Positions 3,001-9,000 of a stretch of 27,848 bases of DNA are shown in pieces. The stretch is from a virus (taxonomy: Duplodnaviria > Heunggongvirae > Uroviricota > Caudoviricetes). The stretch is taken from the IMG/VR virus record IMGVR_UViG_2579778666_000022; one strand, given 5' to 3'. Position 1 is the first letter of the stretch. Each line of letters begins with the position of its first letter. A program made the position numbers.

Positions 3001-6000
3001 ATGCTCGCAATCTACACGCTTTCCTTGGGGTTGGTAAACGCTTTGCATCGTGGATAACAGAACGTATTGCTGAATATGGTTTCGTTGAAAATCAGGACTA
3101 TATGATTGCTTCCCAAATTCGGGAAGCAAAAGGTAGAGGCGGTCACAACCGCAAGGAATACCACCTCACCCTCGACACAGCCAAAGAGCTTGCGATGGTT
3201 GACGACTGCGTCCAATACTGACTATACTCCGCGCCGAGGCCTCGAAAACCTCCCAAAAGCGGATTAAACCAACCCCGTCAGTGTTGGATTTTTTATGCCT
3301 GTTATTCAGTGATAGCACAGTGTGCGGTCACATCCCCGATCAATGTCGGGAGGGCGACGAATACAACACCCGCAAGGGGAATAAGTCCGCGGTATCTTTT
3401 GGGCCGTTTCGAGCCTCCCGGCACCACATCTTGTGGTGGCATTTCTCGAAAAAAGCCAAAGGAGGTCATCATGACCACTCAACTCATCCCTGTGTTTGAA
3501 GGTACAATCTCAAATGAACCTACGCTTCTGGTGAACGCGCGTGATTTGCATGGATTTTTAGAGGTAGGTAAAGATTTTTCTAACTGGATACGGGCCAGGC
3601 TAAACGAGTATGGATTCGTAGAAAATTTAGACTACATTCTATTTTCGCCAAATTTGGCGAAAACTCCAGGCCGCCGCCGCAAGGATTACCACCTCACCCT
3701 CGACACAGCCAAAGAGCTTGCGATGGTTGAACGTAACGAAAAAGGTCGCCAGATCCGCCGCTACTTCATCGAGTGCGAAAAGAAACTTCGCAACATTCAG
3801 CCAGTACAAGCAGAACCACAGCCGCAATTCACAGCCGAGGAAATCATCCTCCTTTGCTACATGCAGCTCTGGATGGAAAAAGCCCAGGACCTTAGCAAGC
3901 AGCTGTACCCCATAATGAAAGAGCTGAACTCCTCATACACGAACAAGCTGTATGACATTGCGTTTGAGACTATCTACATGGTGACGAAGAACAGAGATGT
4001 GCTACTGAGAGAGGCGGCACGGCTTGACCAGTCGAGTTTCGTAGTTCAGCGGGCCAGACCAATGCTGAAAAGCCTGCGGGCAAGACAATTTGAATTCTGA
4101 TACCAAAGGAGCTTCGGCTCCTTTTTTTATACCTGAACGACAACGCCGCTGAAATCGAAGAGTTAATACAATAAAGAGAAGAGCTCAGTACATTAGATAA
4201 ACATTTTTTATCATTATCTCATTGCCTTTATTCAAAAAAATAGTTACATAACGTTACTAGGTAAAATGCAAACCCTCGCTATTTTTATCAGATTGTATGC
4301 CGGTAACTATAACAAAAATCAGAACTGGAGAAGATGTTTTGTCAGCAGCCATTCACCGCATTGAATGGTTGTTTGAAACATTCTCTTCTGTATGTTTATC
4401 TTTTTCTGGCGGTAAAGATTCCACTGTACTTTTCCATCTTGTAGCCGAAGTGGCCTACAGGAAGAAACGTCGTTTTTCTGTATTGTTCATTGACTGGGAA
4501 GCCCAGTATCAATGCACCATTGATCATATACAGAAGATGCGGATGATGTACCAAGATGTAACAGATACCTTTTACTGGGTTGCACTTCCCCTGACGACAG
4601 TAAATGGTGTCTCGCAGTTTCAGCCTGAGTGGATATGCTGGGAGCCCGGTGTAGAGTGGGTTCGACAGCCACCGGAAGATGCTATTACTGATATGGCGTA
4701 TTTCCCCTTTTACCGCTACGCCATGACTTTTGAAGAATTTGTCCCAGCTTTTTCTTCCTGGTTCGCAAGTAACCAATGTAGCGTGGCAATACTGACTGGA
4801 GTCCGCGCGGATGAATCTCTTAACAGATTTATGGGACTGGTTTCCCAACGAAAACTGAGATATGCAGATGATAAACCCTGGACCACGGCGTCACCTGAAG
4901 GTTTTTACTACACCATGTATCCGCTGTATGACTGGAAAACCAACGATATCTGGGTATATAACGCTAAAACCTGTGCAATCTACAATCCTCTGTATGATTT
5001 GATGTACCGTGCAGGCATTCCTCTACGTAATATGCGTGTCTGTGAGCCTTTTGGCCCGGAACAGCGTAAGGGACTATGGCTTTATCATGTTCTGGAGCCA
5101 GAAACTTGGGCACGGATGTGTGAACGAGTATCTGGTGCTGCCAGTGGGGCTCTTTATGCCAATGAAAGCGGGGCCTATTTTGCCCTGCGTAAACGGATGT
5201 CAAAACCATCCCATCATACCTGGCGCAGCTATGCGTTCTTCCTGCTGGACGTAATGCCGGAAAGAACGGCTGAACACTACCGCAACAAGATAGCAGTTTA
5301 CCTGCGCTGGTATCAGAACCGGGGATTCCCGGATGATATCCCGGATGAACAGGAAAATGATCTGGGCTGCCGGGATGTTCCCTCCTGGCGACGTATTTGT
5401 AAGACTCTCATAAAGAATGATTTCTGGTGCCGAACGCTCTCCTTCAGCCCCAACAAACCCCGGCACTATGAACGTTACCTGCAGCGTATGAATGAAAGGA
5501 GGAAGGAATGGGGAATTCTGTGACACCAGAGGTGGAGGTGCTGAGCAAGATGATTCGACAGTACTTCAGTCAGGAACAATCTGAAGAGAAAACCATACAG
5601 GCCCTGAACCATCTCCGCTGCGTACTCCATGAGATCAGCCCCTTTGCTCAAGAACCAGTGGACTGTGTGCTGTGGGTAAAAGCGGATGAAATTGTCGCTA
5701 ACGATTATAATCCCAATGTCATGGCCCCAAGCGAAAAAAAATTACTGAAACAATCTCTGGAAAAAGACGGTTTTACTCAACCAATTGTTGTTTCGGAAGA
5801 AACAAGCCATTACCTGGTGGTGGATGGTTTTCATAGGCAGTTACTAGGTAGAAGAACAGTTACTGGAAAACGCCTGAAAGGCTGGCTACCAGTAACCTGT
5901 ATTAATCCAGACCGAAAGGGACAAACCTCACGTATTGCCGCGACTATCCGACATAACAGAGCCAGGGGGAAACACCAGATAACCTCAATGTCTGATATTG

Positions 6001-9000
6001 TCAGAGATCTTTCACGTCTTGGCTGGACTGATGAACGTATCGGAACAGAACTGGGGATGGACCAGGATGAAGTTCTGAGGTTAAAGCAGATTAGCGGGCT
6101 AACGGAGTTATTTCAGCAGGCAGATTTCAGCCCTGCATGGACTGTTACATAAAGTTAGGTTAGGCCTGTGGAGCCGGGGAATCGGAATTAAACATCTTCC
6201 CTCCCCGGTAAATACAAATAAGGGCTGAACATCATCCCGACTACCTCAGATCACCTAATAATATATCAAGATTATTTTGCGCATTAATGCTATTCGCCAT
6301 TACTGTTGCTGCTTCTGGCAACTTTCCAAGAGCAATAAATATATTCTTAAGGCTGATTGGAATTGATGAACCATGCGGATCGCGCCACTCACCGCAAATT
6401 CTGTGAGTTTCATCACAAAGCCTGAACGCATCCCAACCTCCATATTGACCAAAAATTATGTCCATTGACTCTATTTCTGCGGGCGATAACTCCCCCAGCT
6501 CATCAACAGAAGAAAATGTACGCCACATTTCAACCTTATGATCCGCTACATCAGATATCCATGATTCCCACGGACTGTACTCGTTTTCACTTCCATCCTT
6601 AACCAAAGAATATGTCTGCGATAAAACGGGTCCTTTGTTCATAGAGAAATAATGATCACCACTAATGGGAAAACCATACAACTCCATTGCTTTGCGGTCA
6701 GAGAGATACATCAGCTTAATGAAACGCATAGATCCGCCATGTTTTTTCAGCAAATACGCTGCCATTTACGCAACTTTTTCTTCATTAAACATAAATCGGC
6801 TCTCTGTCTCACATGAAATACTCTTTCTGACTATATGTTAATAGCTCCGGTTATTACAGGTTAATGTGTGTTTATTTCTTAATCAGCCCCGCACTTCCGT
6901 ACGGGGCCATTTCTGTTAATCCACTCCCACTTTTTTGTTGTACTCGCGGTTAAAGCGATCCACGGCAACCTTCATATCCCGCTCTACCGATTTCACCATC
7001 GCCGCCTGCTGCGCCAGACTGAGAGAACTGTCGGCATAAATGGCATCGCGCTGTTTGCGCAAATCCTTCAGTCTCTTCCGGGTATCCTGCATAAGCCCGT
7101 TCATCAACAATTTTCCGTTGTTCTCGTCAATGAACGCCGTTCTTTCTGCACCGGTCAGACTCTTCAGCTCTGCGTGATACTGCGCAACCTCTGTCATCCG
7201 GTCGTACATCTTCTGCTGGTCTGCATACGGCATCACCTCACCCGAAATTTTCCCCAGGAAGGGCACCTGCTGCTCCGGTATATCAATACCGTTCAGCGAT
7301 TTCACCGCCGCATCTGTGGTTTTGGAAATGAAGCGCCCTGTCCCTCCGGAGATATAGTCAATCCAGAATTTCAGCGATTCCGGTGTGATATCCACCGCGC
7401 CGGGACGATACTGGCTGCCACCTGAGAACGCATTCAGCCAGGATGCAAACGCCTTGTACGCCTCAGGCGTTGAACGTCTGCCCAGTTGGCTGTCCGGTTT
7501 CGGTGTGCCAAATGGCATGTTCTCCTGGTAAATCTGCGCCCCCATGAAGTTTTCATTCATGGCAAGGTTCGCAAACGGACGCAGAATGGTCGGCGCTGCA
7601 TTTTTCAGCAATGCCCCGGACAGTGTTTCCGACGTTTCACTGCCCACAGGACTGAATGCCCCCAGGATACCACCGACAACATTACCGGCAGCACGTGAAG
7701 CAGTCAGGTCGCCCGCTGCCACACCTTCAGCAGTATGCCCGAGCAGGAAGAAAACGTTGTACCCGTAAGGCAGAGGAATACTCCAGTACTCTCCGGCCTT
7801 GCCCCCGAACACCGATTTCATAATGACGAGGTTACGCTCTTTCACATGAGACGGCACCTTGTCATACCAGTTAACCCCGTCATCATCCTCCCCCGCAACA
7901 CTGCGGTTAAGCGAGCCAAGCAGATAACCCGCTCCCACAGCTGCAAGCGCGATTTTCTGCGGTACATTGAGATTCTTCCAGCGAAGGCGCTCCGGTAACG
8001 GCCCGTCGCCATTAAGATGTCCGAGCGTTCTCACCAGGTTTGCGGTCCCCTGAATGCTGGCGTTGGCAAACATATACAGCGAGTTCATCAGCGCTCCCTG
8101 CTCACCACGACGGTTAAAGTTCACCGTCATGTTTTTGGCAAGAGATGCCGCCTGCTGGCGTGACAAACCGGCATCACGGGCGTGTTTATAGGCAGAAAGA
8201 CGCAGAGCGTTTTCAACCGCGCCGTTGGCATCCTCGACCAGGTTCAGGAACGAATGCCATGCACCGATACTCTGGCCTTTCCATCCTCCCTTCGCCAGCG
8301 ATACAAGGCGATCCATTTCCTTCTGCTGGCCTTCAAGGTCACCCATGTTAAACCAGCCGGTTTTACCTCCATCCTCAACAAACTCTTTCCACACCTTCTG
8401 CCACTGCGCACCGTTGCCCGTGAGGGTTTTACCACGCAGACTGGCGTATACGGCAGACATGGCAGACCGGCTGTCTTTCACCACAGCCAGGGCGGATAAG
8501 TTATCCAGCACTTTCAGTTTACCGTCGCTCCTTCCCTGCTCAGCCTTCAGGTTCATCACCGCCGTCTGCACGTCACGGATGAAGTTACTGACCAGAAATT
8601 CCGGGTTATACGACGTGTTCACCGTTGCCAGGAAACGGTTAACTTTCCCCAGCGTACGGATTACGGCGTTACTGGTTTCCGGCCCCATGTTCTTCATCGC
8701 ACGCATCAGGCGCGGGTCATGGAGTTTGATGTAGTAAGTTTTGCCGTCCTTTTTGGTGGTGAAGTAGCGATCCGCCATCATTGCCATAGGCACCGGACGT
8801 TCAACAACTTCGCGACGGGTTTCGCCGGTTTCCGGATCAACACGCTCTGCAATCGCCCGCATGGTGTCCGGTTTGTCATCAGTGAATACCTGCCAGTAAT
8901 CCTTATCGGGATTATCCTGCACCAGTTTCAGGAAGGCGTTACCCACTTCGTTTTTGCGATTGCGGATCAGCGATTCGCTCAAATCCTGTATCGCCTGAGT

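Follow-up and report, generated by a model that had tools for sequence, protein, structure and literature searches.

The ibrAB locus

We analyzed a stretch of 27,848 nucleotides (nt) from a virus of the Caudoviricetes (IMG/VR record IMGVR_UViG_2579778666_000022), hereafter the window. The initial annotation placed a gene for a PAPS-reductase-family PP-loop protein and a gene for a ParB/Srx-like protein at 4297-6152, and matches to both families confirm the two open reading frames (ORFs), which are ibrA and ibrB. The resemblance to IbrA and IbrB that had been guessed at proved to be identity: by exact-sequence look-up, the two window proteins are 100% identical to the UniRef100 entries IbrA (Q8KU24_ECOLX) and IbrB (Q8KU23_ECOLX). 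IbrA and IbrB of Escherichia coli ECOR-9 were reportedly described by Sandt, Hopper and Hill in 2002 (J Bacteriol 184:3640) and, judged by the entry names, Q8KU24 and Q8KU23 appear to be the prototypes of that study. Given this identity with named entries the entity is already known, and on protein sequence the pair is that of published, named E. coli regulators. A literature search on IbrAB, YbdNM, and DUF3440 found no biochemical study, and we found no solved structure of any close relative of IbrA or IbrB. The locus contains the following features.

4105-4124, plus strand: terminator-like hairpin and T-run 3' of the antirepressor gene (8-bp stem with 4 GC pairs)
4125-4296, plus strand: AT-rich stretch 5' of ibrA (172 nt, 30.8% GC)
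4195-4219: imperfect inverted repeat in the ibrA upstream region
4297-5523, plus strand: ibrA (408 amino acids), predicted ATP pyrophosphatase of PP-loop type, belonging to the PAPS-reductase/CysD/FMN-adenylyltransferase branch and ending in a helical DUF3440 domain
4405-4422, plus strand: PP-loop SGGKDS, read in frame as IbrA residues 37-42
4552-4776, plus strand: family-specific Trp-rich insertion (IbrA residues 86-160 approximately; W112, W115, W121, R123, and P126 conserved)
4798-4827, plus strand: nucleotide-binding motif GxRxDESxxR (IbrA G168-R177)
4918-4953, plus strand: family signature YPLYDWxxxDIW (IbrA residues 208-219), common to CysD and CysH
5496-5502, plus strand: Shine-Dalgarno sequence AAGGAGG for ibrB, within the 3' end of ibrA and 5 nt ahead of the ibrB ATG
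5508-6152, plus strand: ibrB (214 amino acids), predicted ParB/Srx-fold N-domain and KorB/ParB-like helix-turn-helix (HTH), without a C-terminal dimerization domain
5700-5717, plus strand: NDYNPN (IbrB residues 65-70), in a box-I-like position, most residues invariant in the IbrB family
5823-5837, plus strand: DGFHR (IbrB residues 106-110), invariant, the box-II arginine motif of the ParB/Srx superfamily
5943-5975, plus strand: TIRHNRARGKH (IbrB residues 146-156), all invariant except I147, which is nearly so
6027-6101, plus strand: HTH region (IbrB residues 174-198 approximately) with conserved LGMxxDExLRLxQIxGL

The ibrB start codon (5508-5510) lies 16 nt within ibrA, which ends with the TGA at 5521-5523. 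This 16-nt overlap and the Shine-Dalgarno sequence before it fit the suggestion that translation of ibrB is coupled to that of ibrA. Upstream, the terminator-like hairpin may set ibrAB apart from preceding transcription, and the promoter and regulatory sites of ibrA are presumed to lie in the AT-rich stretch. A sigma-70 consensus scan of 4125-4296 gave nothing scoring at least 9/12. The nested ibrB start, its AAGGAGG, the hairpin with T-run, and the low GC content upstream therefore make ibrAB look like a self-contained operon. The two protein motifs singled out at the outset were both recognized correctly and stay intact under family alignment. The P-loop had been placed exactly; the coordinates given for VVDGFHR span DGFHR only, the longer motif beginning at 5817.

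IbrA resembles adenylyltransferases rather than sulfur enzymes

IbrA scores above the Pfam cut-offs for both PAPS_reduct (61.3 bits against 22.5) and DUF3440 (114.8 against 25). It has the alpha/beta fold and family motif of the PAPS reductases and, as in PP-loop ATP pyrophosphatases, an SGGxDS loop set in an alpha/beta nucleotide-binding fold. We aligned the family twice, with 40 and with 71 members that share 28-82% identity with the query. G39, K40, S42, D66, E68, W121, D217, and Y233 are invariant in both; D41, R170, E173, and R247 reach full invariance in just one alignment and near-invariance in the second (for D41, invariant among the 71 and nearly invariant among the 40). The near-invariant residues further include W112, W115, R123, S174, R177, D212, W213, and W219. 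In neither alignment is any cysteine invariant or nearly invariant, and C249 is exchanged for A, G, D, or N in many family members.

Alignment with the K-12 enzymes CysH and CysD separates the two possible chemistries. The IbrA P-loop SFSGGKDS is of the ATP type found in CysD (YSIGKDS) and not of the CysH type (SSFGIQA), and the catalytic ECG[LI]H of CysH (ECGLH in K-12) is missing from IbrA. The counterpart of GxRxDESxxR is GARRDEEKSR in CysD and GLRREQSGSR in CysH. The Trp-rich insertion of about 75 residues is found in neither enzyme and is presumed to be a substrate-binding element. An AlphaFold2 model of IbrA is confident (predicted local distance difference test [pLDDT] 91.6; predicted template modeling score [pTM] 0.89), and its best fold matches include FAD synthase, CysD, and the APS/PAPS reductases, with FMN adenylyltransferase (FMNAT), TilS, TtuA, and the NAD and GMP synthetases also represented. 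For the helical DUF3440 half there was no structural match among the top 60 listed. In a search of PDB sequences, the sole match to IbrA was a weak stretch of FAD synthase. Among 10 long IbrA relatives scanned for domain fusions, none had a ParB or other informative partner; an ABC-like N-terminus on one of them is probably a gene-call artifact.

The initial annotation had raised the idea of sulfur chemistry like that of DndC or SspD, and this part did not hold. The DndC model TIGR03183 gives IbrA 17.8 bits against a cut-off of 290.4 (E = 1.2e-3), and PADLOC returned weak matches only, to DndC (17.6-20.6 bits; 4.5e-5) and to BrxP (28 bits over 80 residues; 1.6e-7). We found no cysteine desulfurase or DndD/E-like gene either in the annotated identical prophage (RefSeq) or in 10 annotated recurrent neighbor clusters of viral relatives, and the annotated neighbors of ibrAB included no TGT or queuosine genes. 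The lack of a conserved cysteine, the CysD-type P-loop, and the fold matches together argue for adenylyl transfer and not for PAPS-reductase or DndC/SspD chemistry. We conclude that IbrA is a predicted ATP pyrophosphatase/adenylyltransferase and belongs with neither the sulfonucleotide reductases nor the sulfur enzymes of Dnd type; the sulfur chemistry implied by its database names is very unlikely.

IbrB combines a ParB/Srx N-domain with a helix-turn-helix

IbrB falls below the Pfam cut-off for ParB_N (18.9 against 26.3) and matches PHROG 2159, “ParB-like partition protein”, at 4.9e-91; the next-closest PHROGs include ParB domains from phage DNA methyltransferases. A search of PDB sequences returned one ParB chain at 4e-3. 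Across 157 IbrB sequences the near-invariant motifs are PVDxVxW, NDYNPN, APxE..LL..S...DGxTQP, DGFHR, TIRHNRARGKH, and the HTH-like LGMxxDExLRLxQIxGL. The TIRHNRARGKH segment is presumed to contact phosphate or nucleotide. In a relative with 48% identity and one additional domain, the IbrB part is well modeled as a ParB/Srx N-domain followed by a KorB/ParB-like HTH, and we therefore assign this architecture to IbrB: an N-domain of ParB/Srx fold with the conserved box-II arginine, and a DNA-binding domain of the ParB/KorB HTH type. It lacks two features of the clamp-forming ParB proteins. Box II reads DGFHRQLLG and not GERRxRA, the protein stops 16 residues past the HTH and so has no C-terminal dimerization domain, and the Noc model TIGR04285 gives 22.7 bits against 315.

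IbrA and IbrB are paired across phages and bacteria

Using a search built on a 12-sequence alignment, with YPLYDWxxxDIW among its patterns, we examined 160 loci with IbrA relatives, 80 from genomes and 80 from viral contigs. The genome contigs gave nearly all Enterobacterales, and the diversity was supplied by the viral contigs. A same-strand IbrB relative adjoins IbrA at 158/160 loci, in the order A>B at 118 and B>A at 40; one of the two unpaired loci is probably clipped by its contig, because IbrA ends 164 nt before the contig end. The commonest ibrA/ibrB overlaps are -28 and -16 nt. At least 6815 proteins belong to the family at E<=1e-5 (317 clusters at 50% identity, E<=1e-30), and relatives occur in cultured phages of Streptococcus (for example, phage CHPC1230), Flavobacterium (the F. 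columnare phages), Mycobacterium, Arthrobacter, and Bacillus. The recurrent neighbors on viral contigs are Erf, NinG/Rap, exonucleases, a helicase, and DNA methyltransferases, that is, a replication/recombination region.

Two further small proteins belong to many of these loci. Protein X, an ORF of about 125-140 amino acids with the motifs YHxWxxWE, WxxSxEHxLtN, and NRxAWlGQA, adjoins IbrA in 59/80 viral loci and matches nothing in Pfam or PHROG. In 13 of these 59 loci it is fused to the C-terminus of IbrB, an arrangement that is also found in a large metagenomic clade; the best 120 database matches of an IbrB+X profile are all fusions of 371-396 amino acids. In a model of X, a flexible linker leads into an all-helical domain predicted with confidence, for which no structural relative stands out. 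The layout of the fusions (N-domain, HTH, linker, X) resembles the ParB order of N-domain, DNA-binding domain, linker, and C-terminal domain. Protein Y is a GNAT-like ORF of about 125-137 amino acids with a weak Acetyltransf_10 match; in 9 viral loci it separates the IbrA gene from IbrB/X. Examples, by locus and position, are as follows.

Standalone X: L162:7555-7977, L096:4793-5161, L151:2269-2697
X fused to IbrB: L152:171-1298, L154:6803-7993
Y: L118:5857-6234, L087:3723-4136, L145:7949-8344

A hidden Markov model (HMM) search of the window and of the related phage PhiR5_2 for X and Y gave nothing better than E = 0.4, and a profile-profile comparison of X with IbrA gave a probability of 0.6%; on these results the E. 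coli pair hides no X domain. Pairing in either gene order, translational coupling, and the IbrB-X fusions indicate that IbrA and IbrB act together. The strict pairing across phyla and the conserved catalytic motifs also fit the early suggestion that the pair is an enzyme directed to DNA by its partner and not a transcription factor of the classical kind.

The eib-like gene and its link to ibrAB

The prophage arm that carries ibrAB was also thought to carry an eib gene about 18 kb away, and an eib-like ORF is indeed present.

24510-25631, minus strand: eib-like gene for a trimeric autotransporter, bearing a YadA anchor and lying on the ibrAB prophage arm at a distance of 18.4 kb from ibrB

The ORF has a short match to the EibD chain 2xzr (8e-8), and none of the database names for it calls it Eib. 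The protein is 49% identical to its PhiR5_2 counterpart and is without a 51-residue stalk segment present there. The gene sits in the late/tail region. Upstream of it, the palindromes that had been noticed are real inverted repeats, confirmed at 25677-25705, 25735-25772, and 26179-26205. The whole upstream region (25632-26427; 796 nt, 39% GC) holds 4 inverted repeats whose arms are 8 nt or longer, where 0.29 would be expected, and 0/1000 first-order Markov simulations reach four. The idea that IbrB binds these palindromes gained no support: the four differ from each other in sequence, and none recurs 5' of ibrA. In addition, a 16-nt sequence, TACGAAAATTCTGTAT, is repeated perfectly and in direct orientation at 26008 and 26185.

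Among 5426 complete E. coli genomes, 49 carry eib-like DNA (median 3 copies per genome) and 19 carry ibrAB DNA more than 99% identical to that of the window. All 19 fall among the 49, and in several of them one eib copy lies about 20 kb from ibrAB. This co-occurrence agrees with the 2002 study, in which eib-positive strains are reported to share nearly identical ibrAB; physical linkage on one prophage family offers a simple reason. According to PMC7649339, which cites the published genetics, strains with ibrB show higher Eib expression.

A proposed mechanism and its rivals

Based on these data, we tentatively favor a DNA-directed, ATP-dependent adenylylating complex of IbrA and IbrB as the most probable single reading. 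It follows from three points taken together: the two proteins appear to act together, IbrB has an HTH and a ParB/Srx domain, and the predicted IbrA chemistry is adenylylation without a thiol. Within this proposal we infer that IbrA and IbrB associate in a complex, that IbrB attaches to DNA, that IbrA catalyzes an adenylylation, and that what it acts on is either DNA or a component bound to it. The pair would be an obligate two-protein module. IbrB would be the targeting subunit, with its HTH on DNA and its N-domain (DGFHR, RHNRARG) binding a nucleotide, and IbrA would be the catalytic subunit, a PP-loop ATP alpha-beta pyrophosphatase that adenylylates its substrate in the manner of CysD and FMN adenylyltransferase and needs no thiol, persulfide, or Fe-S chemistry. 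The module may descend from a gene set of phage replication/recombination regions, where it usually travels with the helical protein X. In E. coli it would now be an accessory operon complete in itself (a “moron”), found at the ends of 933W-like prophages, on islands and plasmids, and on the chromosome (ybdNM). Expressed in the lysogen, it would act in trans and raise eib expression from sister prophages, the effect on eib following from an alteration of the DNA, of a factor bound to it, or of IbrB. A broader version, possible but in our judgment unlikely, is that IbrA-IbrB (with X in most phages) is a widespread phage DNA-directed adenylylating system that installs an undescribed modification of nucleic acid or nucleotide, neither phosphorothioate nor 7-deazaguanine, for counter-defense or gene control.

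Several points count against the adenylylating complex. The closest structural relatives of IbrA use small molecules (FMN, sulfate, APS) and not nucleic acids, and the fold evidence for IbrB comes from the 48%-identical relative and not from the window protein. No inverted repeat is common to the ibrA and eib upstream regions (nor is any k-mer of at least 11 nt), and a search for recurrent palindromes 5' of the pair at 159 loci gave only generic AT-rich 8-mers. Activation of eib, the sole experimental phenotype, is equally well explained by a pure regulator. A weaker point, which speaks against dense DNA modification, is that modification-detecting sequencing of E. coli lineages with ibrAB-type genes is not known to have revealed an unexplained modification.

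The main rival is accordingly that IbrB is a ParB/KorB/VirB-type regulator or anti-silencer at AT-rich eib promoters and that IbrA serves it by loading it, modifying it, or supplying a nucleotide ligand. We regard this as unlikely, while giving it more weight than any of the alternatives that follow. It accounts for the one known phenotype and draws on the KorB/ParB/VirB-like HTH and ParB N-domain of IbrB, on the modest GC content and excess of inverted repeats upstream of eib, and on the restriction of this ibrAB allele to genomes with eib-like genes (19/19). In K-12, moreover, ybdNM is repressed by a dedicated LysR-type regulator, CitR, and citR itself is reported to be regulated by H-NS (PMC9068703). 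The rival fits less well with the catalytic conservation of IbrA, whose full set of catalytic residues is hard to explain in a helper, and with the phage host range: phages that infect Bacillota, Bacteroidota (F. columnare among them), and Actinomycetota have kept the pair, and these are hosts in which eib is presumably not to be expected. IbrB also lacks the two hallmarks of a clamp-forming ParB, and the upstream comparisons reveal no recurring operator.

An improbable alternative is that the pair makes a small nucleotide-type molecule, a signal or a counter-defense metabolite, with IbrA as adenylyltransferase and IbrB as an Srx/SerK-like phosphotransferase. The small-molecule enzymes that head the structural matches of IbrA and the GNAT-like protein Y inside the module are what one would expect of such a pathway; the highly conserved HTH of IbrB, the DNA-metabolism genes that surround the module in phages, and the lack of recurring candidate substrate-pathway genes nearby are not. 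Slightly less probable again is an RNA modification, for example, of a tRNA base as by TilS, TtcA, or TtuA, with Eib raised through improved translation. IbrA does have weak Pfam matches to ATP_bind_3/TilS, but they are weaker than those to CysD, FMNAT, and the PAPS reductases, the thiolation cysteines are not conserved, and the partner is a ParB-HTH protein of DNA type.

We rate a shade lower still an indirect effect, in which IbrAB, through ParB-like nicking or some other stress, lifts part of the repression of resident lambdoid prophages and eib is expressed along with the late genes. DNA nicking is possible for ParB/Srx proteins (reviewed in PMC5512222), the eib-like gene lies among late genes, and antirepressor genes adjoin ibrAB. 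A stress response would nonetheless have no use for a conserved PP-loop enzyme, and the pair is present in phages, such as those of F. columnare, whose hosts presumably carry no eib. Phosphorothioation of the Dnd, Ssp, or BREX-type-4 kind, with IbrA as DndC/SspD/BrxP and IbrB as DndB, is highly improbable: the superfamilies are the same and the BrxP, DndC, and TIGR03183 models give the weak matches listed above, but the scores are well under the family cut-offs, the cysteine of the Fe-S cluster or persulfide relay is not conserved, and neither a cysteine desulfurase nor DndD/E or SspB/C partners are seen where neighbors are annotated. Least credible of all is a true PAPS reductase acting as an auxiliary metabolic gene of sulfate assimilation, since the Pfam PAPS_reduct match, the PGAP and PHROG names, and the counting of the DUF3440 clade as cysH in virome work (bioRxiv 10.1101/2021.01.05.425418) stand against an ATP-type P-loop, the absence of the ECG[LI]H catalytic cysteine and of any conserved cysteine whatever, and pairing with a ParB-HTH protein at nearly every locus.

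The prophage and its other genes

Positions 1-2397 of the window encode a molybdopterin oxidoreductase. In a 99.9%-identical copy elsewhere that is annotated in RefSeq, this gene bears the name ynfF, and a truncated ynfG comes next. Then come 2 antirepressor genes, genes named “phosphoadenosine phosphosulfate reductase” and “IbrB-like”, a Panacea gene, the “LPD38” gene (8.4 kb), tail genes, lom, and a gene labeled “YadA C-terminal domain”. Exact matches of further window proteins make E. coli 1-176-05_S4_C2 the probable source. Phage PhiR5_2 (61.5 kb; recorded host E. coli K-12 MG1655) has lambda-like early genes, a short-tailed 933W-like layout, and the same right arm, 99.8% identical to the window and with IbrA and IbrB annotated. 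From the ynfF/ynfG junction and the PhiR5_2 arm, the published “IbrAB island” corresponds here to the right end of a 933W-like prophage that has integrated into ynfG.

2937-4100, plus strand: AntA/AntB antirepressor genes (2937-3221 truncated, 3471-4100 intact)
6241-6765, minus strand: Panacea/SocA-domain gene, convergent with ibrB and just downstream of the polyvalent protein gene
6916-15279, minus strand: phage polyvalent protein gene (2787 amino acids; LPD5, LPD1, MuF_C, LPD38), directly beside the ibrAB/Panacea block at the prophage end
27277-27654, minus strand: IS1 transposase fragment, just past a tail-fiber-assembly-like gene (DUF4376, 26428-27024)

Polyvalent proteins are thought to be injected along with the phage DNA, and Panacea/SocA is an antitoxin-type domain. 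No small toxin gene is obvious beside the Panacea/SocA gene, and from their arrangement its product might neutralize a toxic domain of the polyvalent protein. At the other end of the window, the prophage may be interrupted at the IS1 fragment. The chromosome-prophage junction (2398-3221) includes the truncated ynfG, the truncated antA, and, at 2564-2603, a 40-nt hairpin in which a ATGCAAAGCTTTGT unit occurs twice in nearly identical form; a 796-nt segment starting at 2401 equals the eib upstream region in inverted-repeat richness.

Beyond the 19 genomes with the prototype allele, an allele of about 84% identity occurs in about 1900 further genomes, on chromosomes and at 66 plasmid sites. In O157:H7 this 84% allele lies outside this prophage, in an island adjoining a perC-family gene. 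Compared with the ECOR-9 pair, the window has, judged by the UniRef100 names, the same protein sequences, the same overlap of the genes, and the same antirepressor genes and Stx-phage-like DNA alongside. The site next to ynfF agrees with the map position near min 35.8 reportedly published in 2002. On the same basis there is no protein difference; what differs is that the island here is the right end of a 933W-like prophage carrying an eib-like gene. Four features may be new, being absent from the literature that we compared, which excludes the original 2002 paper: the combination of an ATP-type P-loop with no conserved cysteine; the pairing statistics; the X component and the X-IbrB fusion; and the presence of the prototype allele on an eib-carrying prophage, confined to genomes with eib-like genes.

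Related systems and significance

Several known systems resemble the pair in part. DndB-DndC, which acts on DNA, likewise sets a PP-loop enzyme of the PAPS-reductase superfamily (as are SspD and BrxP) beside a ParB/Srx-superfamily protein with a DGxHR-type motif. IbrA differs in having neither the DndC cysteines nor the Fe-S cluster, in scoring far under the DndC models, and in the absence of DndA/D/E partners, and IbrB differs in bearing a KorB/ParB-type HTH. Relative to CysD and the eukaryotic FMN adenylyltransferase, IbrA adds the Trp-rich insertion and the helical DUF3440 domain of about 170 residues, and its partner is a ParB-HTH protein where that of CysD is a GTPase. KorB, VirB, and other ParB-family regulators differ from IbrB, which has DGFHR in place of GERR, no C-terminal dimerization domain, and strict coupling to an enzyme. 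The K-12 paralogs YbdN and YbdM share both families, the overlapping gene order, and all motifs with IbrA and IbrB (57% and 61% identity, respectively); they are chromosomal, adjoin citR, and have no prophage link. In the 7-deazaguanine DNA modification system DpdA-DpdB, a ParB-like NTPase aids the modifying enzyme (PMC12839542), and the likeness lies in this combination of a ParB-like protein with an enzyme, which is a transglycosylase there and the PP-loop protein IbrA here.

IbrAB has been a named regulator since 2002. Its relatives number in the thousands across phages and bacteria, and annotation routinely labels them “PAPS reductase” and “ParB partition protein”. An ATP-type P-loop, a ParB-HTH partner, and the lack of any conserved cysteine argue against both labels and point to an enzyme activity directed at DNA. 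A virome study reported viral cysH, the DUF3440 clade included, as the most abundant viral organosulfur gene (bioRxiv 10.1101/2021.01.05.425418); for the DUF3440 clade the cysH/PAPS-reductase label is probably wrong. The prophage described here is a tractable setting, with the prototype alleles and an eib-like target on one arm and a near-identical arm on PhiR5_2. If the reading of a DNA-directed modification is true, the DUF3440 clade of “viral cysH” would represent the IbrA-IbrB system and not sulfur metabolism.

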